Below, one piece after another: positions 3,139 to 18,368 of a DNA stretch of 64,000 nt. Location of the stretch: IMG/VR virus record IMGVR_UViG_3300024348_000012. One strand, written 5' to 3'. Position numbers and translations under genes: made by a program. The DNA comes from a virus. Its lineage: Duplodnaviria; Heunggongvirae; Uroviricota; Caudoviricetes. Each line of letters opens with the position of its first letter. Position 1 is the stretch's first letter. Under the pieces are notes generated by a model. The model did no database searches. It was not told the origin of the DNA and worked only from the letters and a program-made list of their open reading frames with translations.

Positions 3139-3342
3139 ATGGCACAAACAGTAACAACACAAATGAATGAATTTAGAACATTAGAAGACGGCCGCATCGT
3201 ATTGGATGGATTAGTCTGGAGTCAACATGCAGAAAAAGCAATTGAAGTAAAAGATGAAGATAATGGTTTTAAAGTTCTTAATATTAAATTGAATGGAGTA
3301 GCATACTATCCAGTAGGATATGACAAACGCAAAAAGAAATAA
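3139..3342 (+). CDS. hypothetical small protein
   Basis: 67-aa ORF. Confidence 0.35.
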   Translation: MAQTVTTQMNEFRTLEDGRIVLDGLVWSQHAEKAIEVKDEDNGFKVLNIKLNGVAYYPVGYDKRKKK

Positions 3343-3343
3343 A

Positions 3344-3910
3344 ATGCAAGGTAAAGGAACGGAAAAACAAGCGAGAATTAGTTTCATATTAGTTTTATGT
3401 ATATTTGCTTTATTATTAGCAACAACACTTATTGGTTGTAGTAAAGAGGGATTTTTACAACCGAATAAAAATATTGAAATGAGTATTGATACCCGTTTAC
3501 CAAAAGATAGTAATGGGTATTCAGTATTCAAGTTGTATTCAACCGAAACACAAAACATACATACCATATCAGGAAGTATTAGAGTGAATGGCAAAGTACC
3601 AAATGAACCCAGAGAGAAAGTTGAATGGGAAAATAATTTATATTGGAACTTAGTTAAAGGTGATACGATTACTACAATAACAAAAACCTATTTGAACTAT
3701 TATACAGGTCAGTTTACGATAGTTAAGTTGCCACCAATGATAAGTAATGTGAACGCATTAGTACCTACAATCAATAAGGTATGTTACAATTCGGCAGATG
3801 GTAGTATCAATACAGTCATAGCACCTAAGTGGGAAATGAGAGGTGATACAATGACAATAGTTGCACGATGTGGTAATGTAGTAAAAGTGGAAAAGATTAT
3901 TTTGAAATAA
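3344..3910 (+). CDS. putative lipoprotein
   Basis: N-terminal hydrophobic signal ending in lipobox-like LIGCSKEG; the ATG at 3344 directly follows the previous stop (the track's 3320 start overlaps the upstream ORF). Confidence 0.5.
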   Translation: MQGKGTEKQARISFILVLCIFALLLATTLIGCSKEGFLQPNKNIEMSIDTRLPKDSNGYSVFKLYSTETQNIHTISGSIRVNGKVPNEPREKVEWENNLYWNLVKGDTITTITKTYLNYYTGQFTIVKLPPMISNVNALVPTINKVCYNSADGSINTVIAPKWEMRGDTMTIVARCGNVVKVEKIILK

Positions 3911-4205: not shown

Positions 4206-4527
4206 TGAAATAATTGAAGCATCAAATCATATGATAGATGCTTTAGAAGAAACTGATTTCTTTATAGAGACACCATTCATAGATAGAATACCTTTGAAGA
4301 GAGCATTACAAATTGCAATGCAGAAAAAATGGGAACAAGAAGATGACATGTTTTTGAATGATGCTGAATTTTTAGAAGTTTGTCAAAGTGTATCTAACAA
4401 ATCAATAGGTAAAACGATTGAGGATTTAGTAGACAAAGGTGCATTGAATATGAGTGTAAATGAAGATGGTGAAATACTATATTCAGCAAACAAAGATTTT
4501 CAATTTGATAAAGATGAAGATGAATAA
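4192..4527 (+). CDS. hypothetical acidic protein
   Basis: ORF in the 4102 frame; the internal ATG at 4192 (MEILSEI...) avoids a long overlap with the upstream ORF. Confidence 0.4.
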   Translation: MEILSEIIEASNHMIDALEETDFFIETPFIDRIPLKRALQIAMQKKWEQEDDMFLNDAEFLEVCQSVSNKSIGKTIEDLVDKGALNMSVNEDGEILYSANKDFQFDKDEDE

Positions 4528-5908
4528 ATTATTATTAGGATTTGATGTTATGGCATATAATGGTGAAATGCCCAATTGTTTAGACCCAAAATTTTTATCA
4601 ACAATACACCAAGCTTCTGATTTTGATTATAGATTTTCAGGTGAAGGATTTAAAAAAAGATGGAATGAAGATTGGTCAATATATAATAGTGGATTTTGGG
4701 ACAATCATTCTATTAAAAAATCCATTTACGAAATAATTAAATATCATCCAAATGAAAAATGGTTTTATATGATAGAACCATTTGGAAATATAGAAGCGTT
4801 TTTTGGTAACCATCCATTTTATAATAAATTGTCTTTAGAAAACATTTCATCCGTAGCACTTAATGAAATTAAAAATGGTAATGGTAATTTATTAATTAAT
4901 TATATAGTTGATGGTGGGTTGGGTGTTACAACTAATAACTTTAAAAAAATTATAGATTTTACAAGAAATAATGATATACCAGATGAAAAAGTATACCTAA
5001 TATTTCAAGATTTTAATTTATCTGAAAATATAAAAAGTTTGGGAGTAAATTATAATGTTATTGATTATAATTGGGCACATCATTTAAAATCAACCGAATT
5101 TTGGAATACTATAAACATTCCAAATTGGAGTTTTTGGCCAGAAGATGCATATGAACCCCAATTTGGTAAAATGGAAAAAGTAAAAAGTTCTATTGCATCG
5201 TATGATGAATTTGAAGAATCAATCGGTAAAGATAAAAAAGATTTTCTATTTTTATGTAGACATTGGAAAAAACACAGATTACATATATTGGATATATTAT
5301 ACAAATTAGGATTTGAAAATAATTTAGTTAGTTGGGATAATAGATTTTTTGATACCAATTCAGTAAACCATTACTATATAGATGCAAACAATACTGAAAT
5401 GATTGAGTTGATTAAAAACACATCAAAACATTTGGATATTGAAGATATAACTAAAATTGCAGGATATGGATATGAAGATAAAAATCTATATTTAAATTCT
5501 TATTTGAGTATTGTATCTGAATCCGTTTTCTTTCAAAATGAAATTGATTTCCCAACAGGTTATTTAAGTGAAAAAATTTGGAAACCAATTGGACATTCAC
5601 AAGCATTCGTATTGGCAGGGCCGGCAAATTCATTGAAGTATATTCAAGATATGGGATATAAAACATTTCATCCATATATTGATGAAAGTTATGATAGTGA
5701 AATGGATGATTTGAAACGAATGAATATGATTCTAATAGAAATTGAAAAGTTTTCTAATAAAACAAAAGAAGAAAAGGATGAGTTTTTGAATAATGTAAAA
5801 GATATTGTAAAATATAATCAAGAATATTTTTTAAATTATGCAGAAAAAAATAGCCCAAAAAATATAAACGATATTGTATGGAATTTAACAAAACCGACAA
5901 AGATTTAA
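4514..5908 (+). CDS. fucosyltransferase-like (GT10-like, GT-B fold) glycosyltransferase, paralog A
   Basis: C-terminal YLNSYLSIVSESVFF...GYLSEKIWKPIGHSQAFVLAGP parallels the FucT motif YxFxLxFENS...TEKxW...VPVVLGP; HxxR-type motif CRHWKKHRLHIL upstream; three paralogs elsewhere in the window. Confidence 0.5.
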   Translation: MKMNKLLLGFDVMAYNGEMPNCLDPKFLSTIHQASDFDYRFSGEGFKKRWNEDWSIYNSGFWDNHSIKKSIYEIIKYHPNEKWFYMIEPFGNIEAFFGNHPFYNKLSLENISSVALNEIKNGNGNLLINYIVDGGLGVTTNNFKKIIDFTRNNDIPDEKVYLIFQDFNLSENIKSLGVNYNVIDYNWAHHLKSTEFWNTINIPNWSFWPEDAYEPQFGKMEKVKSSIASYDEFEESIGKDKKDFLFLCRHWKKHRLHILDILYKLGFENNLVSWDNRFFDTNSVNHYYIDANNTEMIELIKNTSKHLDIEDITKIAGYGYEDKNLYLNSYLSIVSESVFFQNEIDFPTGYLSEKIWKPIGHSQAFVLAGPANSLKYIQDMGYKTFHPYIDESYDSEMDDLKRMNMILIEIEKFSNKTKEEKDEFLNNVKDIVKYNQEYFLNYAEKNSPKNINDIVWNLTKPTKI

Positions 5909-6135
5909 AGCAGATGAGTGATGATGAATTGTTTGAGTATTTAGATGCAAAGGCATTATACTTAAAGCAACATACCTCACCATTGAGTAGTTATAAGACA
6001 AAAAAGTTTGCAAGTATTGGAGCAGCAATATCTAATACCGAATTTGACTACGATAGTGTAAAGCAAATAGCAAAAGAAAACGAACAAAAAGGATACGAAA
6101 AATTTATAAAAGATAAAAACAAAAACAATGAATAG
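5878..6135 (+). CDS. hypothetical protein
   Basis: 85-aa ORF overlapping the GT 3' end by 30 nt. Confidence 0.35.
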   Translation: MEFNKTDKDLKQMSDDELFEYLDAKALYLKQHTSPLSSYKTKKFASIGAAISNTEFDYDSVKQIAKENEQKGYEKFIKDKNKNNE

Positions 6136-6817
6136 TAATTTTACAACAGGTATGAATAAACCATCAAAGTTTATAGCAGAAACCTACGGAACAAAAATTA
6201 AAGTAAAGATAGACCATAGTGATTTAAGTTTAGATGAAGTTATGGATGCATTCCAAACTTTAATTATTGGTATGGGGTATCACGAAAATTCATTTAAGAA
6301 TTGGGTGATAGAAAGAGCAAATGAGTATAATGAAACCGATGCAGAGGACTTAAAAGAAAAGTTAGAAGCATGGAAATTTGAAGATGATGATATTGTTTTA
6401 AGACATCGTTATCTTAAAGATAGTGAGGGATATGAAAGTCTAGACGAATTAGAAAATGATTTCTTTGGCACCCACGATAGTGAAGGGTATGAGAGTAATA
6501 TAGATGCTGAAGCGGAAATGAGAAAGTATGCAGAAGAGGAAATGGAAAAAGAAGCGGAAAGAAGAATGGATATCATAGGACAAAACGGAAACGAAGGATT
6601 GCATTATAGAGCAACACAAGAGGATGAAGATGAATTTTCAAACGATGGTGGATTTGATGGTAAACCACATTTTGAATGGGGTGATGTACCAGAAGATAAC
6701 GAAAATTTATTTGAAGGTGATGAATGGAAACCAAACCAAAAATTGGCAGAAGCAAACGAACGATATAAAAGTGAAGTGAAGAAAATGAAATCTAAAAAAA
6801 GAAACAAAAAAGACTAA
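6128..6817 (+). CDS. hypothetical highly acidic protein with internal DSEGYES repeats
   Basis: 229-aa ORF, Asp/Glu-rich; duplicated DSEGYESLDELEND / DSEGYESNIDAEAE segment around 6420-6500. Confidence 0.45.
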   Translation: MNSNFTTGMNKPSKFIAETYGTKIKVKIDHSDLSLDEVMDAFQTLIIGMGYHENSFKNWVIERANEYNETDAEDLKEKLEAWKFEDDDIVLRHRYLKDSEGYESLDELENDFFGTHDSEGYESNIDAEAEMRKYAEEEMEKEAERRMDIIGQNGNEGLHYRATQEDEDEFSNDGGFDGKPHFEWGDVPEDNENLFEGDEWKPNQKLAEANERYKSEVKKMKSKKRNKKD

Positions 6818-7035
6818 TGGGATTTAATCATTGCTACCTAACAAATGTTAAAGACTTACAAAATCATTTAGATAATGTAAGTTTAGAAAAGTTTATTAAA
6901 ACCTATCGTAGTTATGATGCCTTAACCGGCCCAAGTGAATGTTTTGAATTTATTGAACAAAAAATTGAAGAGTATGAAAAAGTTATTAGTGATATTGATA
7001 TTGGGGATGTTGAGTTGCAAGAAGGAAATACCTAA
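6817..7035 (+). CDS. hypothetical small protein
   Basis: 72-aa ORF; its 3' end overlaps the next gene in another frame. Confidence 0.3.
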   Translation: MGFNHCYLTNVKDLQNHLDNVSLEKFIKTYRSYDALTGPSECFEFIEQKIEEYEKVISDIDIGDVELQEGNT

Positions 7036-8218
7036 TATTGTAATACCAACACCACAAACAAAGATAGTAGATACAATAGTACAATCTTTTATTAAAATAA
7101 AAACACAAGTTTCACCTATAAATATTGGAACGTCTTTTTATAACAAATTGGATAAAGATTATAATCCTTTTAGTAAATTTAAATCATTGATTTCACCAAA
7201 AGACCATATTGGAGCTGCATGGTCGTATATTGATTTTGATAAAGATGGTGATGATGATTTTATTGTAGCAACACAACCTGATAATAGTGAAATAGAACAA
7301 ACAAATCACATATACCTTATCAAAAATGATGGTGGTAATTTTTCTTTGTGGAAAACTTTAAATGGTTTTGTTTTTCCAAGACGCGGATTATTGGGGGATT
7401 ACGATGGGAATGGTTATCTGGATTATTTGGTTGCAGACCAGGGATTAGAGACGGATTTCGCAGGTGCATTATTAGGAATAGTATATTTTTATAAAGATAG
7501 TGTTGAATTAAAATATATCCCAAATTCAAAAGAATTTAATCACACTGCAGCAAGTGGTGATATTGATATGGATGGTGATATAGATATTATAACGGCCGAT
7601 TCTAAATATATAAATGATGGCAAAGGAAATTTTGCAAAATCAAATGCTACTACCGAAAATATTAAGGCCGGTTATTTTCATAATCAATTGTATGATTTGG
7701 ATAATGATGGTAAATTAGATGCAATATTTGGTGGTTCGGAAATATTTGGTGATTCAATATATGATTCATCTCCCCGAAAATATAATGGAAATAATAGAAT
7801 ATATTGGAATGATGGTTTGGGTAATTATTCGTATACAAATTCAAATCCATTACCATTAACATATACACAAACAAAAGATACATTTACAATAGTGGATGAT
7901 TTTAATTTTATAGATTTTAATAACGATGGATATCAAGATATTATTGTTTTAAAAGGATGTTGGAAAGGAGTTGGATACTATATTCAGTTTTTACAAAACA
8001 ATAAAAATAAAACATTCACCGAAGTTACAGAACAATACATTGATTTTTATAAATTGAATATTCCAGCTGGGAAGCCAAATGATTTCCAATGGTTAGTTTG
8101 GATAAGGTTGGTTGATTTAAATAAAGATAATAAATTGGATATAATTGCTAGAGAAGGTACGAATATTGAAATGAAATGGATTAATGATGGCAACAATCAC
8201 TTTAAATTACAAAAATAA
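6974..8218 (+). CDS. lipoprotein with FG-GAP/VCBS-like beta-propeller repeats
   Basis: Signal MKKLLVILILGMLSCKKE (lipobox); six or more Ca-binding-like DxDxDG repeats (DFDKDGDDDFIVAT, YDGNGYLDYLVAD, DIDMDGDIDIITAD, DLDNDGKLDAIFGG, DFNNDGYQDIIVL, DLNKDNKLDIIAREG). Confidence 0.5.
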   Translation: MKKLLVILILGMLSCKKEIPNIVIPTPQTKIVDTIVQSFIKIKTQVSPINIGTSFYNKLDKDYNPFSKFKSLISPKDHIGAAWSYIDFDKDGDDDFIVATQPDNSEIEQTNHIYLIKNDGGNFSLWKTLNGFVFPRRGLLGDYDGNGYLDYLVADQGLETDFAGALLGIVYFYKDSVELKYIPNSKEFNHTAASGDIDMDGDIDIITADSKYINDGKGNFAKSNATTENIKAGYFHNQLYDLDNDGKLDAIFGGSEIFGDSIYDSSPRKYNGNNRIYWNDGLGNYSYTNSNPLPLTYTQTKDTFTIVDDFNFIDFNNDGYQDIIVLKGCWKGVGYYIQFLQNNKNKTFTEVTEQYIDFYKLNIPAGKPNDFQWLVWIRLVDLNKDNKLDIIAREGTNIEMKWINDGNNHFKLQK

Positions 8219-8697
8219 TGGGTTACAATAAATTTAGATGGTGGACAAAGGGTAGACCGAACAAACCACTTAAAGCAGACGCACCTTTGTTATTGAAAAT
8301 AAGAAATGGAGACTTTAACTATTCATATATGTTTAGTGAAGCAATTGAAATGAGAGAAACGCAACACAAAGTGTATCAACAGGCATATGACAATTATGGT
8401 GGAACGGATGAAAGGAATAGAATACAGGCTGCATTGGAAGCATCACAAATGAAACGAGTTAAAGCATTGAAGTTAGAATTTGAAGCAAACAAAGATGAGC
8501 AGATGTTATTGTGGAAACTACGAAGTGAACTTACAAAAGAGTTCGGAAAGGATTTGTGGGATAAAGCAATGGAACGAAGTCGAGGTAAGGGTACATTGGA
8601 GGATTTATATATGTGGTATAAAAAACAATGTAAAATTGGTACAACAAAAAGTGAAATAGATATTCAATTAAAAAGAAAGAATACATATTTATCTTAA
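8218..8697 (+). CDS. hypothetical protein
   Basis: 159-aa ORF; ATGG overlap with the previous stop. Confidence 0.45.
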   Translation: MGYNKFRWWTKGRPNKPLKADAPLLLKIRNGDFNYSYMFSEAIEMRETQHKVYQQAYDNYGGTDERNRIQAALEASQMKRVKALKLEFEANKDEQMLLWKLRSELTKEFGKDLWDKAMERSRGKGTLEDLYMWYKKQCKIGTTKSEIDIQLKRKNTYLS

Positions 8698-8994
8698 ATG
8701 AAAGGAGAACCAATTATATTGCATATAGAATTAGGAAACGAATCAGTATCAAACTGGTTGTATCAAAATCAATATGTAATTTTTTCAGAACTAATCCGAT
8801 ATTCAAAAAAACTTATTAAAGAAAATTTAAATGCCATTCAAGCAATAATGGTATCTAATTCATCGGATAATATTGTATTCATTATTAAAAAAGATAATGT
8901 TAAATTGACATTGGATAAAGCTATGGATTATTTTCTAGAAATAGAAGAATATGAAAAATGTTCGGAAATAAGAGATTTATTAAATGAGTTATGA
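8698..8994 (+). CDS. hypothetical protein
   Basis: 98-aa ORF. Confidence 0.4.
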   Translation: MKGEPIILHIELGNESVSNWLYQNQYVIFSELIRYSKKLIKENLNAIQAIMVSNSSDNIVFIIKKDNVKLTLDKAMDYFLEIEEYEKCSEIRDLLNEL

Positions 8995-10079
8995 TAATAT
9001 TTAAAGAATTAAATAAAAAAAATGAAATATCCGATATTGAATTGGGTAGTATATCTTTATTAAATGCTAAATCATTATATGATGTATTTAAAACTGATAA
9101 AAATATTTTACATTTATTTTATAATGGTGGTTATGATTTCACCTCCATTGATGTGATTTTTGAATTAATGGAATATGATAAAGTTATTTTAGATTTTAGT
9201 GGAGCAGATGATTTCTTATTAAGATTTTATGATATGGATAATGTAAAATCTAAAATAAAAGCAAAAGAAATTATTATCATATCTAAAAATATATTTGAAA
9301 AACCTGGGTACATTTATAACGACCCAATTATGCATAGGATTAAAATATTAGATTTTCTTATTAGTAATGATATTAAAAATCATTTATATTTCTTTTTAGG
9401 TGGGCATGCTAGGTGGCATCGTTTATTATTTTTGAATAAACTTTTAAAAATAAACGCATTATCAAAATTAAATTGGTCTTTGCGAAGAGTTGAAGAAGAA
9501 ACACCATCAATGGTAAGAACTTGTATTCCATTGGAATATATAAATCTTTATAAGGATTTAGAAATACACAAATATTTACCAAAGAGTTTGGACTTTGATA
9601 TACATGACCAAGCATCATATCATAACTGGGGTGACGCATCTATATTTGATAATCCTGGTTATATTGCTAATTTAGATTTTTATTATAATAGTTACATTGA
9701 AATAATATCCGAAAGTGTTTTTGAATTAGCAATCAATCCGGCTAAAAAAGATAAAGAATATTTTATAGTATCGGAAAAAACATTCAAACCATTGGCATTG
9801 GGATTTCCTTTTATTGGATTAACATTACCAAAAACGTTTACAAAATTAAAAGAGTGGGGATTTAAATTGTTTGATGAATTAATTGATTATTCATTTGATG
9901 ATGAATATGATGATAATAAAAGAATGGAAATTATTATTGAACAAATTTCCAATAACAATATAAAAGAAAACTTTAATATTCATTTTGAATCTATAAAAGA
10001 AAAACATTTACATAATAGAAAAGTGTTTTTAGAATTAAAAGAACGATTACTTAAAAATTATGAAAAAAATATCATTTAA
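8991..10079 (+). CDS. fucosyltransferase-like glycosyltransferase, paralog B
   Basis: YYNSYIEIISESVFE...IVSEKTFKPLALGFPFIGL...DYSFDDEYDDNKRMEII aligns with paralogs A, C and D; GGHARWHR motif; ATGA overlap. Confidence 0.5.
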   Translation: MIIFKELNKKNEISDIELGSISLLNAKSLYDVFKTDKNILHLFYNGGYDFTSIDVIFELMEYDKVILDFSGADDFLLRFYDMDNVKSKIKAKEIIIISKNIFEKPGYIYNDPIMHRIKILDFLISNDIKNHLYFFLGGHARWHRLLFLNKLLKINALSKLNWSLRRVEEETPSMVRTCIPLEYINLYKDLEIHKYLPKSLDFDIHDQASYHNWGDASIFDNPGYIANLDFYYNSYIEIISESVFELAINPAKKDKEYFIVSEKTFKPLALGFPFIGLTLPKTFTKLKEWGFKLFDELIDYSFDDEYDDNKRMEIIIEQISNNNIKENFNIHFESIKEKHLHNRKVFLELKERLLKNYEKNII

Positions 10080-11247
10080 TAAATTAGAAAGAAATCAAGA
10101 TGAATTGGGTAATTTTACATATTCATTTAGAACAATAAAAGACCACAACGAAGGTTTGACTGAATTGTTGGATTCCTTTGTTGAAAAGGGATATAAATTT
10201 GAACAAGTACATAATTCAAGTATAGATACAAATACATCAATTGTTGTCAGCATTAATGTAATTGATATGGAAGATGTTAATCTTTGTAAAGAAATTAATA
10301 AAATACTAAACATAGATTGTAAAAATATCTTTATAGAATTAAGTTGTTATGACCACCAAGAAATTGATATTAGATTTTATAATTTTTGTAGAGAAAATAC
10401 AAATAAAGAATTGTGGTTTATAGATAAAAATATGTTGCAAGTTGCGGATGATTGTTTATTTTTTGAACACCATTGTTGGCATACAAATATGTATATGCCA
10501 AAATATAAAGATTCATTTATTCAATTGAATACTTGGTCTGAGAAATTTCAAAAACCACACAAAGGATTATTTTTAGCAGGACATATTAGATTTCATAAAA
10601 TAGAATTACTTAATTATTTATATGAAAATAATTTATTAGATGAAAATTTCATATGGAGTTCAACCGATGAGACATTTCAATCGGGTATGTTTAGAGAATT
10701 TATTCCAGAAAGAGATGATGCAGAATATAGAACTTTTAAAATATTAGAAAGAATACCTAATATGCAAGATTTTAATTTATTTGATGAATGGAAATATCAT
10801 AACTACCCAGCTCACATAAATTATATGAATTATTTTAATACATATTTTGAAATAATACCTGAAACTCATTTTTATGATAGAACAAACGTATCAGGTGGAA
10901 CAAGAAATACTAGAAAAAATTGGATAAGTATAAGTGAAAAAACCTGTAAAGCATTAAGAATGAATATACCATTTGTAATGTTATCAAAATCAAACACAGT
11001 TAAATTACTTACTGAACGATTTGGATTTGATGTTTCGTTGGACTTTTGGAATCACTCATATGATGAAATTGAAGATGATAAATTAAGAATGGAATCAATT
11101 AAATTAAAATTAAAATCAATATTAGAAATATCAAAAGAAGAGTTGCATGATTTTTATTACAAGTATTTTTACAATAAAAATAATAATCATATATTTATTG
11201 AAAATTTTTACAACAAACCTTTAGAAACAATTTTTAATAAATTTTAA
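10060..11247 (+). CDS. fucosyltransferase-like glycosyltransferase, paralog C
   Basis: YFNTYFEIIPETHFY...SISEKTCKALRMNIPFVML...NHSYDEIEDDKLRME; AGHIRFHK motif. Confidence 0.5.
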   Translation: MKKISFNKLERNQDELGNFTYSFRTIKDHNEGLTELLDSFVEKGYKFEQVHNSSIDTNTSIVVSINVIDMEDVNLCKEINKILNIDCKNIFIELSCYDHQEIDIRFYNFCRENTNKELWFIDKNMLQVADDCLFFEHHCWHTNMYMPKYKDSFIQLNTWSEKFQKPHKGLFLAGHIRFHKIELLNYLYENNLLDENFIWSSTDETFQSGMFREFIPERDDAEYRTFKILERIPNMQDFNLFDEWKYHNYPAHINYMNYFNTYFEIIPETHFYDRTNVSGGTRNTRKNWISISEKTCKALRMNIPFVMLSKSNTVKLLTERFGFDVSLDFWNHSYDEIEDDKLRMESIKLKLKSILEISKEELHDFYYKYFYNKNNNHIFIENFYNKPLETIFNKF

Positions 11248-11248
11248 A

Positions 11249-11431
11249 ATGAAACAACAAATATTAAAACTAGTAAATCAAATAAAAGAGGACTTAAAAG
11301 CAATAGATAAAGATGGAGTTTCGCATCCATTAATTGATAGTGTTTATGAGAGATTAGAATTGATTGAAGATGAAATTTACGAAGATGATGCACAAGCAGA
11401 TGCATTATCATTTGAGGATGAGGATTATTAA
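11249..11431 (+). CDS. hypothetical small acidic protein
   Basis: 60-aa ORF, ATG 2 nt after the previous stop. Confidence 0.35.
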   Translation: MKQQILKLVNQIKEDLKAIDKDGVSHPLIDSVYERLELIEDEIYEDDAQADALSFEDEDY

Positions 11432-11442
11432 AACAAAACAAA

Positions 11443-11784
11443 ATGAATAGGTTATTACAAGGTATCTTTTATGGTATCTTAGGACAGGTTTTTTCCTTTA
11501 TGCAATTGCAGGGAAGTATAAAGTATGGTTGGTATCAAAAATATCCTATATTAATATTATTAAGTTCAATACCAGCAGCATGGTTTTACATTAAATCAGT
11601 AGAACATTTGGTTGCATGGGGTGATGGTCAATTATGGCCGTCCCGTCTTATTGGATTTGGTATTGGTATGATTGTATTTGTACTTTTGAGTATGGTATTA
11701 TTCAAAGAACCATTGACACTAAAAACATTAACTTGTTTAATGTTAGCAGCAAGTATTTTATTAGTACAAATATTTTGGAAATGA
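11443..11784 (+). CDS. hypothetical membrane protein
   Basis: 113 aa with three or four predicted TM helices. Confidence 0.45.
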   Translation: MNRLLQGIFYGILGQVFSFMQLQGSIKYGWYQKYPILILLSSIPAAWFYIKSVEHLVAWGDGQLWPSRLIGFGIGMIVFVLLSMVLFKEPLTLKTLTCLMLAASILLVQIFWK

Positions 11785-12026
11785 TAAGAAAAATGGAGAC
11801 CGCTAAAGTTGGTGAGGACTTATACGAAATAATAAAGAAGTTACCAATACAAAGATTTGCACAAGAAGTAACGGGTGAATATGCAGAAGCATTAAAAAAG
11901 TATTATGGAGTTGAAAAGATATTAAAATTTCATCAAACACAAGAATACTTATTCGTAAATTTAATAGAAGAATTACAAATACAAACAAATGATAACAAAG
12001 AAACAAGCGAAAGCAACAAATCGTAA
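11781..12026 (+). CDS. hypothetical protein
   Basis: ATGA overlap start (MIRKMETAKVG...); the track's longer 11634 start overlaps the upstream gene. Confidence 0.4.
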   Translation: MIRKMETAKVGEDLYEIIKKLPIQRFAQEVTGEYAEALKKYYGVEKILKFHQTQEYLFVNLIEELQIQTNDNKETSESNKS

Positions 12027-12113
12027 AGCGATGGCTAACAAAACGAGAAGTGAACAATTAAAAAAGAAAAACTATCGTAGACATACATAAAATTCTTGCA
12101 TGCCATGTGAAGT

Positions 12114-12149
12114 GGGATGTCTCTTTATTGAGGTGTCCCATTTTTATTT
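12114..12149 (+). terminator. putative rho-independent terminator
   Basis: GGGATGTCTC-tttatt-GAGGTGTCCC hairpin (with G-U pairs) followed by ATTTTTATTT. Confidence 0.35.
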
Positions 12150-12178
12150 GGTAATGTCAAAAATTTATCGTATATTTA
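12147..12178 (+). promoter_or_regulatory. conserved phage promoter box (TTTG-N20-TATATTTA)
   Basis: tttggtaatgtcaaaaatttatcgtatattta; one of 7 near-identical boxes; fits the Bacteroidetes -33 TTTG / -7 TAnnTTTG architecture. Confidence 0.5.
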
Positions 12179-12195
12179 AGTATTAAAAAGAAATT

Positions 12196-12735
12196 ATGTT
12201 TGATAAGTTAGTAGATTTATTAGTTAGATTTAGTATGGATATATTGCCATTTGTTATTGTAGAACAATGGAATGGTGCAGTACAATTAAGATTTGGAAAG
12301 TTTATAAAAGTATTATATCCTGGTATTCATTTTAAGATACCATTTTTTGACTCTATTATTGAATGTCCTGTTATTACTCAGTCAGTCAATTTACCCTCAC
12401 AAACATTAACTACATTGGACGATGAAAGTATTGTATTAAAATCAATTATCAGATACAAAGTAAGTAATATACAAACGTACTTATTAAGTGTAATGCACGC
12501 AAATGATGTACTAATTGATACGACACAGGGTATAATTAGGGATGTGGTAGAAAGGACAACATGGAATAACTTAGTGGATGTAAACGAAACAATAACAAAC
12601 GAAGTGAAAGAATATGTAGTTAGATGGGGAATTGAAGTTGAAGCAGTAACAATAACAGATTTGGGGATTGTAAAAAGTTTCCGTATATTTGGAGATGAAG
12701 GACAAGGAACAAAAATATTACCAAACGATATATAA
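12196..12735 (+). CDS. SPFH/band-7 (stomatin/prohibitin-like) domain protein
   Basis: N-terminal hydrophobic anchor, then VEQWNGAVQLRFGKFIKVLYPGIHFKIPFFDSI...TLDDESIVLKSIIRYKV, typical of the SPFH core. Confidence 0.65.
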   Translation: MFDKLVDLLVRFSMDILPFVIVEQWNGAVQLRFGKFIKVLYPGIHFKIPFFDSIIECPVITQSVNLPSQTLTTLDDESIVLKSIIRYKVSNIQTYLLSVMHANDVLIDTTQGIIRDVVERTTWNNLVDVNETITNEVKEYVVRWGIEVEAVTITDLGIVKSFRIFGDEGQGTKILPNDI

Positions 12736-12932
12736 TGGATAAGAGATACGCAAAACAAATAATACAATGGGCAGAGGAAGCAAAAGAAACCTTAACCATT
12801 CGTAAAGAAATTATAATAGATGAAAATGTTACCGATGAAAAATTAGGTAATATTATTCGTATGATGTATAAAGCAAAAGTGGAAACACAAAACGAAACAA
12901 TTTTAAAAACAAAAGAAAACACAAGATTATGA
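12735..12932 (+). CDS. hypothetical small protein
   Basis: 65-aa ORF, ATG overlapping the previous stop. Confidence 0.35.
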   Translation: MDKRYAKQIIQWAEEAKETLTIRKEIIIDENVTDEKLGNIIRMMYKAKVETQNETILKTKENTRL

Positions 12933-13123
12933 AAAAATGGGAAATAGCAAACAATAGAACACAAATAAATAAAGATATAGTAAATGTATTACCCTTTATT
13001 AAAGTATGGTATAGTAAAAATTACTTTTTTGAAACAGGAGTATTCACACCAGCATTTGGAATAGCAATTAGCTGGTTAAAATGGAATTACTATTTGACAA
13101 TTCAACAAGGATATAAAAAATAA
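12929..13123 (+). CDS. hypothetical small protein
   Basis: 64-aa ORF, ATGA overlap. Confidence 0.35.
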   Translation: MKKWEIANNRTQINKDIVNVLPFIKVWYSKNYFFETGVFTPAFGIAISWLKWNYYLTIQQGYKK

Positions 13124-13126
13124 ATA

Positions 13127-13327
13127 ATGAAATCGGAAAAACTTATGGCACTTTACAAACGAAAAAAAGAATTGCAAGAGCAAATCATTTATTGGGAGAA
13201 ATTTCAGGGAGTGAATTGGCTAGGTAAATGGGGCAGAAGTGTTAGGTTAGAGGTATTAAAAGAAAAGTTTGCAAAAATAGAAAAACAAATAACAAAATCA
13301 AAAAACAAAAAAGACGAAAATAAATAA
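13127..13327 (+). CDS. hypothetical small basic protein
   Basis: 66-aa ORF. Confidence 0.35.
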   Translation: MKSEKLMALYKRKKELQEQIIYWEKFQGVNWLGKWGRSVRLEVLKEKFAKIEKQITKSKNKKDENK

Positions 13328-13330
13328 GTT

Positions 13331-14149
13331 ATGGAATTAATTATAACATTAATAGTATTGATTATAATATGGTGTATTGCATTTATGGTAGGTAATAAAC
13401 AAGGCACAAACCAATTAATCAATCAAATCAAAAAGGATGGTGGGTATTATGATATGGAATATACATCATCAGTATATCCAATTTTAGACCCAACAAGTTC
13501 ACTAAACGAAGTACCCAAAGAATTATTAATGGGTGGTGATATTGAAAGGACACTACATATTGCCGGAGTTAAACAAGCAACACCCGCGAAATTACAAGAG
13601 TGGCAAGATGAAAGATTTAAGAGAGCAAGTGTAGAAACTGAATTATCTATGGATAGTTTATTGGATAAGTTAAATAAAACGGACTTACAAATTAAAGCAG
13701 GTATAATAGAAAATACCGATAAAACGGGAGCTGATATTAAAATTCAAGTCAAAGTAATTGACCCGATTGAAGAATTGAAATTGAAAACGGATGCTGCAAG
13801 AAAACAACATGAAAGGGAAAGGCAGGAACGAATTAAAATTGACTTTGATGCATTAAATTTTAGTAGAATATCCAATGAAGCAAGAAAACAAATAACCGAA
13901 ATAGTAAAGCAGGATTTGGAAAACAAAATAAAAGAAATTGAAAAAAATACTCCTGAAATAAATGAAGATGCAAAATCGGAAGGGGATTTTATGTATAATT
14001 GGATAAGAGAAAAAAGTGGAAAAAAGAAACCAAATCCAAAACAAATGGATGGTGTTAAAAGTGATGTACCTTTTGTAAAAACTAGAAAGAGAAAACCCAA
14101 AACTACAAAAGAGTGGGAGGATGAATTTGATATTGGAGGAAATTCGTAA
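13331..14149 (+). CDS. hypothetical membrane-anchored, highly charged protein
   Basis: N-terminal TM (LIITLIVLIIIWCIAFMV), then a K/E-rich low-complexity region. Confidence 0.45.
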   Translation: MELIITLIVLIIIWCIAFMVGNKQGTNQLINQIKKDGGYYDMEYTSSVYPILDPTSSLNEVPKELLMGGDIERTLHIAGVKQATPAKLQEWQDERFKRASVETELSMDSLLDKLNKTDLQIKAGIIENTDKTGADIKIQVKVIDPIEELKLKTDAARKQHERERQERIKIDFDALNFSRISNEARKQITEIVKQDLENKIKEIEKNTPEINEDAKSEGDFMYNWIREKSGKKKPNPKQMDGVKSDVPFVKTRKRKPKTTKEWEDEFDIGGNS

Positions 14150-14152
14150 TAT

Positions 14153-14371
14153 ATGAAATGGATATTAATTTTATTACTACCATTTTCAATATCAGCACAA
14201 ACAAATGATACTACCTGTCAAATGGTTTATTATCAAAAGAGTTTAATAAAGAAAGGTAAGATTGAATTATATGGTTACACCTCATATGATTTGTGGTGGG
14301 CAGATGAAAGTGGAATGGGTATAAACATAACAATACCTAACAAAAGAAAAAAGAAAAAACATAAGCATTGA
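14153..14371 (+). CDS. hypothetical secreted small protein
   Basis: Signal-peptide-like MKWILILLLPFSISAQ. Confidence 0.4.
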   Translation: MKWILILLLPFSISAQTNDTTCQMVYYQKSLIKKGKIELYGYTSYDLWWADESGMGINITIPNKRKKKKHKH

Positions 14372-14799
14372 GTTGGATTTGTAGATATTGTAGCAAAGAT
14401 ACATCCGATATTGATTACGATTATTTGGATGGGTATGACCATTTATCATGTGCATTAAGTAATATAAAAATGAAAACAAAACTAAAAATAACTAATCCCG
14501 AAAAGATTAATAGTAAAAATATATGTTTAGATAAGTCAATTGTTGAAATAAATTATGTTGGACTTAACGCAGCAGTCAACACAGACAATGAAACATATAC
14601 TTTATATAAATTTGTAGGAATTATGAATAGTAATTGGTGTAATACGATATTTGAAATACATACCGACATAAAGGATAACAAAGTTCAGTTTAATATTTGG
14701 AAAAATGGCGGAGTGGAATTGAATAAGTTGCCTGTTAATGTAATACGAGATAGGAGTGAGTTAATAAACCGAATGATTGCAGAAATCAAAAAGTCTTAA
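14368..14799 (+). CDS. hypothetical protein
   Basis: 143-aa ORF, ATGA overlap. Confidence 0.45.
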   Translation: MSWICRYCSKDTSDIDYDYLDGYDHLSCALSNIKMKTKLKITNPEKINSKNICLDKSIVEINYVGLNAAVNTDNETYTLYKFVGIMNSNWCNTIFEIHTDIKDNKVQFNIWKNGGVELNKLPVNVIRDRSELINRMIAEIKKS

Positions 14800-14800
14800 T

Positions 14801-15376
14801 ATGAAAATTAAAGGTTGGGAAAAAATAAGTGGATATACATACAAAGGATATACAATTGTCAATCCAATACACAATGCCGGTCAAACAAGTTATAATGCAA
14901 CAATATTAAACTTAAACTTGCCACAAAAACCAAAGTGGGAATTATCAGTATTGACACCACAACATAAATTTATAGTAGGTGAAAATACTGCGGATGGTAT
15001 ATTTTATATAGTAATGTGGGATGACAATAAAAATCATATAAGTAGACATGTATCAAAACAAAGAATGAAGTCTATTTCAATTTTCAGAAATGAATATGAG
15101 GAAATGATTGATGAAATGTTAAGTAGACAAATAACATCGGCACCCCGTAGTCATTCGTTAAATACTGCATATAGTAAACCAATTAATAATAATTTATACG
15201 GAACGGCAACAATTGTAGGTAATACGGGTGGTGGAATAATGAGCACAATAAATAGTAATGGAAATACTACTACATGGAACCCGAATACAAACTTACCAAG
15301 TTCAATGTTGATGTCAATAAAAGATTTACAAGAACAAATTGATAACTTAAAAAATAAATATGTTAACAATAAATAA
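14801..15376 (+). CDS. hypothetical protein (IKG/ISGY small-protein family)
   Basis: Start MKIKGWEKISGYTYKGY shares the IKG...ISGY..GY motif with ORFs 20769 and 20036. Confidence 0.45.
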   Translation: MKIKGWEKISGYTYKGYTIVNPIHNAGQTSYNATILNLNLPQKPKWELSVLTPQHKFIVGENTADGIFYIVMWDDNKNHISRHVSKQRMKSISIFRNEYEEMIDEMLSRQITSAPRSHSLNTAYSKPINNNLYGTATIVGNTGGGIMSTINSNGNTTTWNPNTNLPSSMLMSIKDLQEQIDNLKNKYVNNK

Positions 15377-15626
15377 TTTAGACAAAATAGTTAGGTACCC
15401 GATAGGATATACTTTTCGTGTTAAGTCAATGGTGTGCGGACATACAACTTATCACATCAGTTTAATAGATGGCAAAGGTGGATGCAGAGACTTAAAACTC
15501 AATCGTATCAAAAATAAACGAGGTAAATATACAATATCACATGGTAACTATTCTTTGTATTTGAAATTTTCAGACATACACAATTTAGATTTCTTTTGTA
15601 AACAAATAACAAGATTAATATGCTAA
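15360..15626 (+). CDS. hypothetical protein, MLTIKN-family member
   Basis: N-terminus MLTINNLDKI; same start as 15620, 17132 and 20036. Confidence 0.45.
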   Translation: MLTINNLDKIVRYPIGYTFRVKSMVCGHTTYHISLIDGKGGCRDLKLNRIKNKRGKYTISHGNYSLYLKFSDIHNLDFFCKQITRLIC

Positions 15627-15889
15627 CAATTAAAAATGTCCAACAAATAATCGGACAAGAATATAACGAAGTGTTTAATATTATTGGGGTTAAAGAATAT
15701 AAACAATGTTATGAATTTACATTGGGATATGATGCTACTATAAAACCGGCAGTAGAAACTATATTACTACATAGAAAACAAACCGACAACGGAATGTATA
15801 TAATGGAATACAATAGTAAAACCCTTTGGTTATCAAAAAGTGAATTTGACACAATTGATAAGATTATAATTTGTATGCAAACAATTTAA
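15620..15889 (+). CDS. hypothetical protein, MLTIKN-family member
   Basis: N-terminus MLTIKNVQQI; its 3' 138 bp is duplicated at 16990-17127. Confidence 0.45.
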   Translation: MLTIKNVQQIIGQEYNEVFNIIGVKEYKQCYEFTLGYDATIKPAVETILLHRKQTDNGMYIMEYNSKTLWLSKSEFDTIDKIIICMQTI

Positions 15890-15890
15890 T

Positions 15891-16982
15891 ATGAAATGTA
15901 AGTTTTTAAGACAGAGTGGATATGATATTAAAGTTAATGAAGGCAATTTACAAACATTCCCAAAATGGGCCGGTGCTACTATTGAAAATAATGATGAAAA
16001 TGTTTTGATATTTTTTAACAATTTAATGGAGTTATCTAATTCTAATTTATTAAAAGAATTAAAAATTAAATTTGACAAAGGGGGTTTAAAAAGGTTAATT
16101 TTATTTTCAGAAGATATGGATTTTATTCAAAATCAATCTACAATAGATACAATTGTTAAAAATTTAAATGATATTTTTCAAAATCATATTGATAAAATTA
16201 AAATAACATTATTGAGTAAAAGTTGGAATTTAAATTGGGGTAATATATTCACATCAAATAATCTGGGATGTTTGTCTATGGTTATTGATAGAAATATTCA
16301 ACTGGGTAAAAATTATAATTTATTAAATTTAAATAGGGAAAAACATTTTATTACAACACAAAATGCACCTCGTGCGAGTAGAATGTATCTTTATGATTTT
16401 TTAATTAAAAATAATCTTTTAGATAAATTTGAATATTCATTTTTTGTTACTCAAAATAAAGAGTATTTAATGTGGCAAGATGTTATTGGGGGAACTGATA
16501 ATTTACAACCATTAACAGGTAAGTACCTCAAAAAGAATTTTGATAACGAAAATATTGTAAATCCATTAGAAGATTTACAATTAGTAAATTTTACAAAAGA
16601 ATTAAATACATATTTTTCAGTATTAATGGAAACTTCATATTGTACTAGTGAAAATTATTATGGAATATCCGAAAAATCGTTCAAAGGTTTTTCCATAAAA
16701 AAACCATTTTTATTATTTGCATCCGCAGGAGCATATAAAGGTTTAACTGAACTGGGATTCAAAATGTATGATAATATTTTTGACCTATCTTATATGCATA
16801 AAACATCTCATTATGAACGTTTAGAAGGATTTACAAATGAAATAAAACGAATATGTGAATTACCAATTAATGAAATTCAAAAATTATATATTGATAATTT
16901 GGAAACAATAGAATATAATTACAATAATTTAACAAATCTTATTGAAAAAGAAAAAAGTGATTTCTTAAAATTGTTTTGGTAA
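15891..16982 (+). CDS. fucosyltransferase-like glycosyltransferase, paralog D
   Basis: LNTYFSVLMETSY...GISEKSFKGFSIKKPFLLF...GFKMYDNIFDLSY aligns with paralogs A-C; flanked by 138-bp direct repeats. Confidence 0.5.
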   Translation: MKCKFLRQSGYDIKVNEGNLQTFPKWAGATIENNDENVLIFFNNLMELSNSNLLKELKIKFDKGGLKRLILFSEDMDFIQNQSTIDTIVKNLNDIFQNHIDKIKITLLSKSWNLNWGNIFTSNNLGCLSMVIDRNIQLGKNYNLLNLNREKHFITTQNAPRASRMYLYDFLIKNNLLDKFEYSFFVTQNKEYLMWQDVIGGTDNLQPLTGKYLKKNFDNENIVNPLEDLQLVNFTKELNTYFSVLMETSYCTSENYYGISEKSFKGFSIKKPFLLFASAGAYKGLTELGFKMYDNIFDLSYMHKTSHYERLEGFTNEIKRICELPINEIQKLYIDNLETIEYNYNNLTNLIEKEKSDFLKLFW

Positions 16983-17131: not shown

Positions 17132-17443
17132 ATGTTAACAATAAAAAACTTAAATAAACTAAACAATATAGAATTGGGTAAGAAAAACTTTTATGTAGCA
17201 AGAATTGAGGAACAATTTAGTATTGATAATATAAGTTTAACTGCAAGTCAACATCAATACAAATTTGAATTATCTAATATGAAATACGCAATAACAGTTA
17301 CATTGGATAGGGGGCCCAAACAATTTGTAGTTTCACATTATAAATTAACTAGTAGTACGGGAAAAGTATTGTATATAACAGGAAAAGAAATTAGCAACAT
17401 GGACATATTCATTGATAAGTTAAGATTTGTCGCATTAGGATAG
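17132..17443 (+). CDS. hypothetical protein, MLTIKN-family member
   Basis: N-terminus MLTIKNLNKL. Confidence 0.45.
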   Translation: MLTIKNLNKLNNIELGKKNFYVARIEEQFSIDNISLTASQHQYKFELSNMKYAITVTLDRGPKQFVVSHYKLTSSTGKVLYITGKEISNMDIFIDKLRFVALG

Positions 17444-17444
17444 A

Positions 17445-17476
17445 TTTGGCAAAGTGAAAAATTTGTCGTATATTTA
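17445..17476 (+). promoter_or_regulatory. conserved phage promoter box
   Basis: tttggcaaagtgaaaaatttgtcgtatattta; ends 5 nt before the UvdE ATG, so the transcript is likely leaderless or nearly so. Confidence 0.5.
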
Positions 17477-17480
17477 CTAT

Positions 17481-18368
17481 ATGAGTATAGGATATGCATG
17501 TATTAACCTTTCATTAGGTAAAAAGATTACAACGAATAGAACAATGGTTAAACGAACTTTCATAGCAAAGGGTATTGACTATGTATCGGATTTGGTATTG
17601 CAGAATGTTGCAGACCTCGAACGAATTATAGACTGGAACGAACAAAACGGAATTAAAATGTATCGTATGAGTAGTGAGATGTTTCCGTGGGCAACCGAAT
17701 ACGAATTTACTGAATTAAAAGATTGGAACGAAATACAAAAGATACTACAAAGATGTGGTGCAAAGGCAACAATGTATAAACAAAGATTATCATTTCACCC
17801 AGGACCTTTCAATGTATTAGTTTCACCAAAAGAAAATGTGGTATTGAATACGATTAAAGATTTGGAAGTGCATGGTAAAATAATGGACGCAATGGAATTA
17901 TCTAAAACACCTTACAATAAAATAAACATACATTGCAACGGAGTATATGGTGACAAGATTGCAGCAATGGATAGATTTATAACTAACTTTGACAAACTAT
18001 CTAATTCAGTAAAAAGTAGACTAACAATTGAGAACGATGACAAGGCTAGTATGTATTCAGTTAAAGACTTAATGTATATTCATAATAAGATTAACATACC
18101 TATTGTATTTGATTATCACCACCATACTTTTAACACAGGTGATTTGAGTGAACGAGATGCATTGAAGTTGGCAGTATCAACCTGGCCGAAAGGCATAACA
18201 CCGGCAGTTCATTATTCCGAAAGTAAAGCACTACATGAAAACAATACAAAAATTAAAGCCCAAGCACATTCCGATTATATTACAACCCTCCCCGATACAT
18301 ACGACATGGGTGTGGACATTATGGTTGAAGCAAAACAAAAAGATTTAGCAATATTAAAATTTATATAA
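17481..18368 (+). CDS. uvdE: UV-damage endonuclease (UvdE/UVDE family)
   Basis: N-terminal MSIGYACINLSL matches the UvdE start motif, then TIM-barrel-like length with His/Asp/Glu-rich motifs (HCNGVYGDK, DYHHHTFN). The track's 17454 GTG start lies inside the promoter box. Confidence 0.6.
   Translation: MSIGYACINLSLGKKITTNRTMVKRTFIAKGIDYVSDLVLQNVADLERIIDWNEQNGIKMYRMSSEMFPWATEYEFTELKDWNEIQKILQRCGAKATMYKQRLSFHPGPFNVLVSPKENVVLNTIKDLEVHGKIMDAMELSKTPYNKINIHCNGVYGDKIAAMDRFITNFDKLSNSVKSRLTIENDDKASMYSVKDLMYIHNKINIPIVFDYHHHTFNTGDLSERDALKLAVSTWPKGITPAVHYSESKALHENNTKIKAQAHSDYITTLPDTYDMGVDIMVEAKQKDLAILKFI

Follow-up and report, generated by a model that had tools for sequence, protein, structure and literature searches.

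Four old paralogs from an unnamed family of probable GT-B glycosyltransferases in an uncultured large marine myovirus

The IMG/VR viral record IMGVR_UViG_3300024348_000012, from which we analysed one stretch of 64,000 nucleotides (nt; hereafter, the window), contains four open reading frames (ORFs), designated here A, B, C, and D, whose deduced products resemble each other and were taken in a first-pass annotation for fucosyltransferase-like enzymes of glycosyltransferase (GT) families GT10 or GT11. Do these genes encode fucosyltransferases and, if not, what kind of protein do they specify, and what could a single phage use four of them for? Our analyses indicate that A–D are likely to be soluble, cytoplasmic, two-domain nucleotide-sugar glycosyltransferases of the GT-B type, representing four old sub-lineages of a huge, unannotated family found mainly in aquatic phages.

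4514-5908, plus strand: paralog A, 464 amino acids (aa) from the ATG at 4514, or 482 aa from an alternative in-frame ATG at 4460; longest N-terminal region of the four
8991-10079, plus strand: paralog B, 362 aa
10060-11247, plus strand: paralog C, 395 aa
15891-16982, plus strand: paralog D, 363 aa; most divergent and fastest evolving of the four

Four related genes and their family

The four ORFs, which spread over 12.5 kb of the window, are true paralogs. They matched each other in an all-versus-all BLASTP comparison of the 135 window ORFs (B-C, E 2e-18, 32% identity over 193 aa; A-B, 2e-11, 30% over 233 aa; C-D, 4e-9; A-C, 1e-6; B-D, 1e-6; and A-D, 1e-4), and all their matches outside the family had E > 0.5. 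Likewise, a hidden Markov model (HMM) of sub-clade A6, built from a tighter sub-alignment of 16 outside sequences and none from the window, matched exactly these four of the 135 ORFs (A, 6e-54; B, 1.3e-30; D, 3.1e-30; C, 1.4e-22), and neither search found a fifth family copy in the window. Both analyses therefore agree with the relationship proposed in the first-pass annotation; the ORFs are present at the starts that it gave, and its identities of 25–35% are about right (local identities, 23.5–32%). No transmembrane segment was found in A, B, C, or D, and the four products are predicted to be soluble.

The copies are old, as had also been proposed, and did not arise by recent duplication. For both A and D, the window siblings are outranked in similarity by more than 140 other sequences of the family, and outside orthologs particular to each copy exist at about 55–78% identity (A, 61% to relative P0044; C, 78% to P0032; D, about 55–58% to P0182-P0187). 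Apart from its own lineage, C is closest to that of B, and the relation is reciprocal, in agreement with an origin of C as an old tandem duplicate of B. Since C begins within B, with its ATG 20 nt into the 3' end of that ORF, translation of the two is probably coupled, and both the order and the overlap of the pair are kept in four close relatives (L001-L004). Two related viral contigs (99% and 77% identity) preserve the synteny of all four copies, and ratios of non-synonymous to synonymous substitution (dN/dS) of 0.09 for A (against L002), 0.19 for C, 0.24 for B, and 0.35 for D point to purifying selection on each of them.

An exhaustive HMMER search recovered 12,175 representatives of 50%-identity clusters at E ≤ 1e-3, and 7,667 at E ≤ 1e-10. 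Sampled members, including those from a cluster look-up of 10 distant relatives, were all metagenomic and none was named, and two narrow peptide patterns yielded at least 551 confirmed matches in IMG/VR. Cellular members occur mainly in Alphaproteobacteria (Rhodospirillales chromosomes, Methylobacterium sp. J-030, Caulobacter sp. B11, and Pelagibacterales), and further ones in Bdellovibrionales, Bacteroidota, and Marinimicrobia. The family is covered by no model in Pfam, NCBIfam, or PHROGs, and has neither a solved structure nor an informative name.

For the study of gene context we kept 79 viral loci, picked by their similarity to A6, which is another sub-clade than those of the window copies. 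Within ±10 kb, at least two family copies were present in 53 of these loci, at least three in 29, and seven in one. Four copies in one phage are thus normal for the family, contrary to the initial impression that four GTs of one family would be unusual. Additionally, many members of 680–1,000 aa (among relatives P0033-P0177) are natural tandem fusions of two complete units. Scanning of long relatives for extra domains showed such tandem units and one informative fusion, in locus L005 (5328-7499), where an N-terminal epimerase of the short-chain dehydrogenase/reductase (SDR) type (Pfam Epimerase, 5e-22) is joined to a family unit (1.1e-58); typed against the PDB, this SDR is a generic sugar-nucleotide epimerase/dehydratase, silent on the donor nucleotide. 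Fusions of a dehydrogenase and a family unit occur in L058 (8678-11068) and L060 (8618-10906). These fusions to SDR and UDP-glucose dehydrogenase domains support the use of nucleotide sugars by the family.

Conserved motifs, fold and likeness to GT10

The motifs that had suggested a fucosyltransferase are in large part shared by the paralogs. The C-terminal blocks N-[ST]-Y-[FIL]-x-[IV]-[ILV]-x-E-[ST] (preceded by a leading Y that is absent in D), [LVI]-S-E-K-x-x-K, G-[FY], and [DN]-x-S-[YF] (with Asp at the first position in three copies) are present in all four. Conversely, the upstream G-H-x-R-[WF]-H-[RK] motif, which had also been described as common, is exact only in B (GHARWHR) and C, being different in A and D, and the block truly common to the four is [RK]-x-[HS]-[RK]. 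The relevant residues are as follows.

A: RHWKKHR; NSYLSIVSES (E336); LSEKIWK (E353-K354); GYK; DESYD
B: candidate donor-site residues R141/H143/R144 (nt 9411-9422), E241-S242 (nt 9711-9716), and E262-K263 (nt 9774-9779); candidate N-domain acid D49
C: GHIRFHK; NTYFEIIPET (E268); ISEKTCK (E293-K294)
D: both His of the HxRxHR block gone (PRASR); R161/R164, E247-T248, and E261-K262 kept

Across 84 diverse members, R141, H143, R144, E241, E262, K263, P273, F274, G290, D303, R311, and N342 (B numbering) are invariant or nearly so; because the same columns are conserved in such distant relatives, the motifs appear to be family signatures and not the product of chance. R141, R144, E241, E262, and K263, located in the C-domain, are candidates for contacts with a nucleotide-sugar donor. 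An acid following a strand of the N-domain (Asp in all four paralogs; in 82% of relatives, Glu) occupies a place like that of E137 of FUT9 and E158 of AtFUT11, and is a candidate for the catalytic base. For GT10, roles have been described for E137, R202, K256, and N246 of FUT9 (PMC12717137) and for E158, R226, N271, E280, and K281 of AtFUT11 (PMC12929593).

An AlphaFold2 model of B, built on an alignment of 19 sequences, had a predicted local distance difference test (pLDDT) score of 86 and a predicted template-modelling (pTM) score of 0.86. The model of D (pLDDT 78, pTM 0.81) also has two Rossmann-like domains, and its C-terminal half has the same order of strands and helices as that of B. 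The features that define GT-B, two Rossmann-like beta/alpha/beta domains and a C-terminal helix that crosses back, are present in the predicted models, and the Foldseek matches of B in the PDB were GT-B proteins, albeit weak. At the level of the fold, the glycosyltransferase-like call was therefore right: B and D model as GT-B, and a non-GT fold was not seen. Fold comparison of B gave these scores.

PimB' (GT4): 10.4
POGLUT2 (GT90): 10.1
mango FucT13 (GT10): 9.7
EXTL3 / EXT1 (GT47): 9.5
H. pylori FucT (GT10): 9.4
AtFUT11 (GT10): 8.6
FUT9 (GT10): 8.5
T4 BGT / AGT, the beta- and alpha-glucosyltransferases (GT63 / GT72): 8.0

The fold search does not separate GT10 from GT4, GT90, or GT47, and the nearest structural neighbours of the family are not T4 BGT/AGT. 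Among predicted viral structures in BFVD, B matched more than 20 similar entries named as uncharacterized proteins of uncultured Caudovirales phages (E down to 3.5e-12, template-modelling score about 0.6), one Mimivirus-like entry, and a 788-aa phage entry named 'UDP-glucose/GDP-mannose dehydrogenase, N-terminal' (E 1.4e-08).

Sequence searches gave no support to membership of GT10 or GT11. The Pfam models of these families (Glyco_transf_10/11; PF00852, PF17039, and PF01531) matched none of the four paralogs and none of 84 and 19 relatives, even at E ≤ 10, and scans of A–D and of sets of 19, 10, and 84 relatives against Pfam, NCBIfam, and PHROGs produced no meaningful match; sporadic sub-threshold matches (TBP-TOTE, AlgG, methyltransferase) were rejected as noise. 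Likewise, no match was obtained in searches of PDB sequences with family profiles, or with megablast (the region) and tblastn (A, B, and D) against 50,697 phage genomes.

For a direct comparison of profiles, we retrieved 120 GT10 proteins, all of which contained PF00852, and used a deep profile of 109 sequences; the C-domain sequence of H. pylori FucT (HpFucT) was validated against 2NZW (100% identity, residues 182-346), and the AtFUT11, mango FucT13, and FUT9 fragments were taken from printed alignments. With hhalign, the family matched this profile with a probability of 8–18%, P of 0.0013–0.004, and a score of 29.4; the reversed profile scored 13.6, and 40 column shuffles reached 17.8 at most. 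The extended alignment, of low confidence, was collinear over three blocks, placing R144 on HpFucT R195, SYFSxVxET on YKFxLAFEN, and SEKtfKP...PFI on VTEKl...VPIY. In GT10, this Arg (R202 in FUT9, R226 in AtFUT11) begins the first helix of the C-domain and binds the diphosphate. The distant relatives P0029 and P0030 read ETSMDVPYVTEK, with the exact GT10 E-x9-E-K spacing and YVTEK, and family members made up 15 of the top 20 sequences found by a GT10 HMM with filters off (30% expected), although the best score was only 5.6 bits. As controls, E. coli K-12 enzymes of GT4, GT9, and GT30 were run in the same set-up, with the following hhalign scores.

Family versus GT4 (five-member E. coli profile): 11.9 (P 0.77)
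Family versus GT9: 12.2
Family versus GT30: 21.3
Family versus GT10 (deep profile): 29.4
GT9 versus GT30: 28.5

GT10 thus appears as the best signal of the four GT-B families tested, yet not above the score between distinct GT-B families. Assignment to GT10, which we considered on the motif match and a P of 0.001–0.004, was rejected as unproven, since the score with GT10 is no better than that of GT9 with GT30. As for GT11 and the GT11/GT23/GT65/GT68 superfamily, motif I, HxRRGD, is absent in the corresponding blocks of A–D, which contain no RR-x-D. The likeness to fucosyltransferase motifs nevertheless holds in part: the order Arg...E-[TS]...[ST]-E-K is real and collinear, whereas Thr or Ser occupies in 100% of members the position of the Asn in the GT10 FEN motif (N246 in FUT9, N271 in AtFUT11), the Asn of 'SN' is missing in all four paralogs, and the distance from the Glu to the Glu-Lys pair is 14–25 residues in A–D versus 10 in GT10. 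We take the GT10-like order of motifs as a lead, not as a classification, and the donor site plausibly works in the way of the GT10 type.

Gene neighbourhoods of the family and of the window

Context was examined with E. coli K-12 proteins as probes, over ±10 kb, in the 79 viral and in 43 cellular loci. A sugar-nucleotide enzyme homolog was present in 58 of the 79 viral loci, and a Ugd-type dehydrogenase gene in 29. Carbamoyltransferase homologs occurred in 22 viral loci (within L050-L128; 28%) and in three of the 43 cellular ones, so the glycans of these islands may be carbamoylated. Locus L005, a contig of 114 kb, contains six members in 21 kb together with a DegT aminotransferase, SDR epimerases/dehydratases, a UDP-Glc/GDP-Man dehydrogenase, a dTDP-sugar isomerase, DUF5672, and a GDP-fucose-synthase-like SDR. 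On a 7.6-Mb Rhodospirillales chromosome (OY770023.1; L036:7587-10147), a GDP-mannose 4,6-dehydratase (Gmd) gene starts 54 bp 3' of a member, on the same strand (PDB 7kf3, E 5e-161), which offers the strongest indication that at least some members may draw on GDP-6-deoxyhexose donors. Pooled bacterial neighbourhoods contained GDP_Man_Dehyd, Epimerase, DegT, GT4, FkbM methyltransferases, and carbamoyltransferases, along with unrelated metabolism.

The same probes, of limited sensitivity for these classes, found no GT2 or GT4 match with phmmer in the 79 viral loci and no Wzx or phosphoglycosyl-transferase genes in the family islands. Phage enzymes known to modify DNA cluster with ThyS, or with a C5-cytosine-methyltransferase (C5-MT) and TET (bioRxiv 10.1101/2023.12.21.572611). 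Homologs of ThyA or of Dcm, a C5-MT, were found at E ≤ 1e-5 in none of the 79 viral or 43 cellular loci nor in the window, although divergent hydroxymethylases could escape such a search and the genome, at least 240 kb in size, is represented here by 64 kb; Pfam scans of the window ORFs gave no match to TET_JBP or DNA_methylase. Taken together, the context connects the family with nucleotide sugars and with the assembly of glycans, and argues against DNA hypermodification.

Within the window, nearly all genes lie on one strand and the GC content is about 29%. The following features accompany the paralogs.

11443-11784, plus strand: small membrane protein, 113 aa, with 3-4 hydrophobic segments; always 3' of B-C in L001-L004
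12109-12144, plus strand: terminator-like hairpin, 15-bp stem and T-run; tentatively, it may close the unit formed by B, C, and the membrane-protein ORF
43202-44899, plus strand: NodU/NolO-type carbamoyltransferase (Pfam Carbam_trans_N/C, 1e-58 and 1e-64; PHROG 1601), about 26 kb 3' of D

The 113-aa protein has a sub-threshold match to SMR (PF00893, E 0.045), a family that includes the ArnE/F flippase subunits, and no homolog was found in other family loci; judging from synteny, it is a possible transporter- or flippase-like membrane partner or accessory of the glycosyltransferases. Terminators in the region are at chance level (four found, 3.4 expected), as is the outcome of a sigma-70 promoter scan, and the T4-type late promoter TATAAATA was found 17 times against 26 expected, never upstream of A–D. 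Because homologs of the carbamoyltransferase co-locate with the family elsewhere, the enzyme of the window is possibly linked in function to A–D, as a glycan-tailoring enzyme.

Two lipoprotein-like ORFs lie near the paralogs, one upstream of A (3320-3910) and another between A and B (6935-8218), the latter encoding a protein that combines FG-GAP/VCBS repeats (Pfam FG-GAP_3, 6e-24) and a lipoprotein-like N-terminus. Their products may be exported or located at the surface, and could conceivably serve as acceptors or partners. Three small paralogous ORFs flank D, two directly upstream (15360-15626 and 15620-15889) and one downstream (17132-17443); their products, of 88-103 aa, are 21–25% identical and all start with MLTI[KN]N. 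The ORF at 14777-15376, between C and D, showed a faint, sub-threshold match to TAGT (PF20691, E 0.0063), which we consider probably spurious, being below threshold and with no TET, C5-MT, or ThyS partner detected in the window; nothing else hints at DNA glycosylation.

The window also encodes gp6-like and gp25 baseplate proteins. The gp6-like protein (49269-51293) is 41% identical to that of Microcystis phage Mel-JY01, followed by a 484-kb uncultured phage and by Flavobacterium phage immuto (38%); its nearest homologs are not from classical T4-like cyanophages. L003, a 240-kb ENA contig with the B-C pair, carries genes for heme oxygenase, a ferredoxin-dependent bilin reductase, and Kyano_Gp96. 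From the baseplate proteins, the marine-myovirus cargo, and this 240-kb relative, the source is an uncultured large marine myovirus. Cargo of the window, at 31876-33075, 17454-18368, and elsewhere in 18–45 kb, includes a tryptophan-halogenase-like flavoenzyme (Pfam, 1e-91) and UvdE (4e-66), as well as a SET-domain protein, three 2-oxoglutarate-Fe(II) (2OG-Fe(II)) oxygenases of PF13640, peptide deformylase, Hsp20, a GDSL lipase, an SDR, and Band 7; these were found in a pooled scan, and several positions were not assigned.

Possible function and comparison with known systems

By analogy with metal-independent GT-B enzymes, especially those of GT10, the C-terminal Rossmann domain of A–D would bind the nucleotide sugar. 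R141 and R144, at the start of the first C-domain helix, and K263 of S-E-K would neutralise the diphosphate, E262 of S-E-K would hold the nucleoside, and E241 of the invariant E-[TS] would contact the donor, while the N-domain acid could serve as the base that activates an acceptor hydroxyl, in a presumably inverting reaction. The N-terminal domains, being variable, could confer a different acceptor on each copy. Because the copies differ mainly in this domain, they probably make different linkages, such that during infection every enzyme would contribute its own sugar or linkage to a glycan directed by the phage, most likely on a host envelope glycoconjugate or, alternatively, on virion proteins, in the manner of chloroviruses.

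Several points weigh against this interpretation. Sequence searches (Pfam, NCBIfam, PHROGs, and PDB) link the family to no characterised glycosyltransferase, and the residue roles derive from a profile alignment of low confidence, in which E241...E262 could equally be read as the EX(n)E of retaining GT4-type enzymes. No sugar-nucleotide pathway gene stands beside A–D in the window, the context evidence coming from other clades of the family, and the counts from the 79 loci reflect a selection on a single sub-clade, A6, with no matched baseline of random loci. Finally, the acceptor, be it the host envelope, the virion, or another, is one that we infer.

Could A–D be, after all, true but divergent GT10-type alpha-1,3/4- (or GT11-type) fucosyltransferases that use GDP-fucose? 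The collinear motifs with R144 on HpFucT R195, the relatives with exact GT10 spacing, the hhalign score above those of the reversed and shuffled profiles and above those of the other three families, and the excess of family members in the GT10 HMM search would fit, as would some GDP-sugar context (the Gmd of L036 and the GDP-fucose-synthase-like SDR of L005). Nevertheless, the absence of any Pfam match, an hhalign probability and an HMM score this low, a score that GT9 and GT30 match between themselves, the replacement of the donor-contacting Asn, the longer spacing, and the lack of HxRRGD make this improbable, and enzymes for dTDP- and UDP-sugars are also present in family loci, so that GDP-fucose is not singled out.

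Less probable still is that the four enzymes glycosylate hypermodified bases of the phage DNA (5-hydroxymethyl-pyrimidines), with several paralogs building di- or trisaccharides in the manner of the T4 alpha/beta-glucosyltransferases or of TET/ThyS-associated GTs. GT-B enzymes that add sugars to DNA are documented in phages, as are multi-sugar DNA glycans assembled by more than one GT (bioRxiv 10.1101/2023.12.21.572611), and the window has the faint TAGT match and several 2OG-Fe(II) oxygenases; however, that match is sub-threshold, the oxygenases are of the PF13640/PF03171 types, neither ThyA-like nor C5-MT homologs were found in the window or in the viral and cellular loci, nor TET_JBP or DNA_methylase in the window, and chromosomal members in bacteria lie beside Gmd, DegT, GT4, and FkbM genes, as in glycan synthesis. 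The chemistry is not fixed by any characterised homolog, and the GT-B fold also houses proteins that are not transferases, with the UDP-GlcNAc 2-epimerase 1o6c and the pseudo-GT VldE among the Foldseek matches, while the SDR and dehydrogenase fusions show an involvement with nucleotide sugars only. We nonetheless give very little credence to an epimerase (UDP-GlcNAc 2-epimerase type), a hydrolase, a phosphorylase, or a non-catalytic sugar-nucleotide binder: arrays of up to seven divergent copies that vary in the N-terminal (acceptor) domain but keep the C-terminal (donor) one constant are what linkage-specific transferases would be expected to show, and with no GT2 or GT4 detected in the viral loci, within the limited sensitivity of the probes, the family would be the sole candidate transferase beside the sugar-nucleotide genes.

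Linkage-specific glycosyltransferases of the GT-B type, then, are the reading that we favour for A–D. More tentatively, and as a proposal that may well prove too broad, the whole family, with at least 12,000 50%-identity clusters, could be an unrecognised GT-B family and the workhorse of self-contained phage glycan islands, in which its arrays and fusions are combined with dehydratases, epimerases, dehydrogenases, and carbamoyltransferases. Aquatic phages would thereby commonly synthesise glycoconjugates of their own, some perhaps carbamoylated, by a route unlike the known bacterial polysaccharide pathways, and the family would be a missing phage branch towards GT10. If so, thousands of 'hypothetical proteins' of aquatic phages, often several per genome, would become recognisable as glycosyltransferases, pointing to a widespread phage capacity to build or remodel glycans. 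Host receptors could be changed by them, with consequences for superinfection exclusion and for the resistance of marine bacteria to grazing and phages, or virions could be decorated. CAZy and Pfam would gain a new GT-B family whose conserved residues are open to mutagenesis, and the natural paralogs would supply glyco-engineering with a set of donor and acceptor specificities, some of them potentially new. In any case, the label of fucosyltransferase should not be propagated into the annotation of A–D.

Among known enzymes, the GT47 exostosins and GT90 POGLUT proteins (EXT1/EXTL3, chlorovirus A075L 8ASA, and POGLUT1/2) have no sequence or Pfam relation to the family, in which their signature motifs were not found. 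The two acids of the donor domain recall the EX7E of GT4 (PimB' 3OKC, GlgM, WaaG, TarM, and SdgB), and one of the 84 relatives touches Pfam Glycos_transf_1 (E 0.0024); nevertheless, none of the four paralogs has a Pfam GT4 match, and neither the Glu-Lys pair nor the Arg/His/Arg block is a GT4 feature. The GTs that act on phage DNA (T4 alpha-GT, GT72; T4 beta-GT, GT63; and the TET/ThyS-associated enzymes) are phage-encoded like A–D, several can act serially, and the T4 enzymes and one TET/ThyS class are GT-B.

Enzymes of GT10 (H. pylori FucT, 2NZW/5ZOI; FUT9, 8D0O; A. thaliana FUT11, 9S6A; and mango FucT13, 7YRO) differ from A–D in that the latter have 4–15 additional residues between the two acidic motifs, are predicted to be soluble, with neither a type II membrane anchor nor heptad repeats, and share with their family an extra conserved block, GYKTF..IDESYD..R, that has no counterpart in GT10. 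The two resemble each other in the GT-B fold, in a conserved acid that follows a strand of the N-domain, and in the order of C-domain elements: a basic residue that opens the first helix (placed on the GT10 Arg in the low-confidence alignment), then a strand ending in E-x, then [ST]-E-K, behind which come a helix and a P-[FI]-[IY] strand.

The cell-surface islands of marine cyanomyoviruses carry several GTs, including fucosyltransferases, thought to remodel the host envelope (PMC9602691). Those of S-SCSM1 and P-SSM2 contain annotated GT2, GT4, GT11, GT23, and O-FucT genes together with GDP-sugar pathway genes, whereas the window has an unannotated family scattered over 12.5 kb with no adjoining pathway genes; like the source of the window, these are large marine myoviruses that carry several glycosyltransferases.

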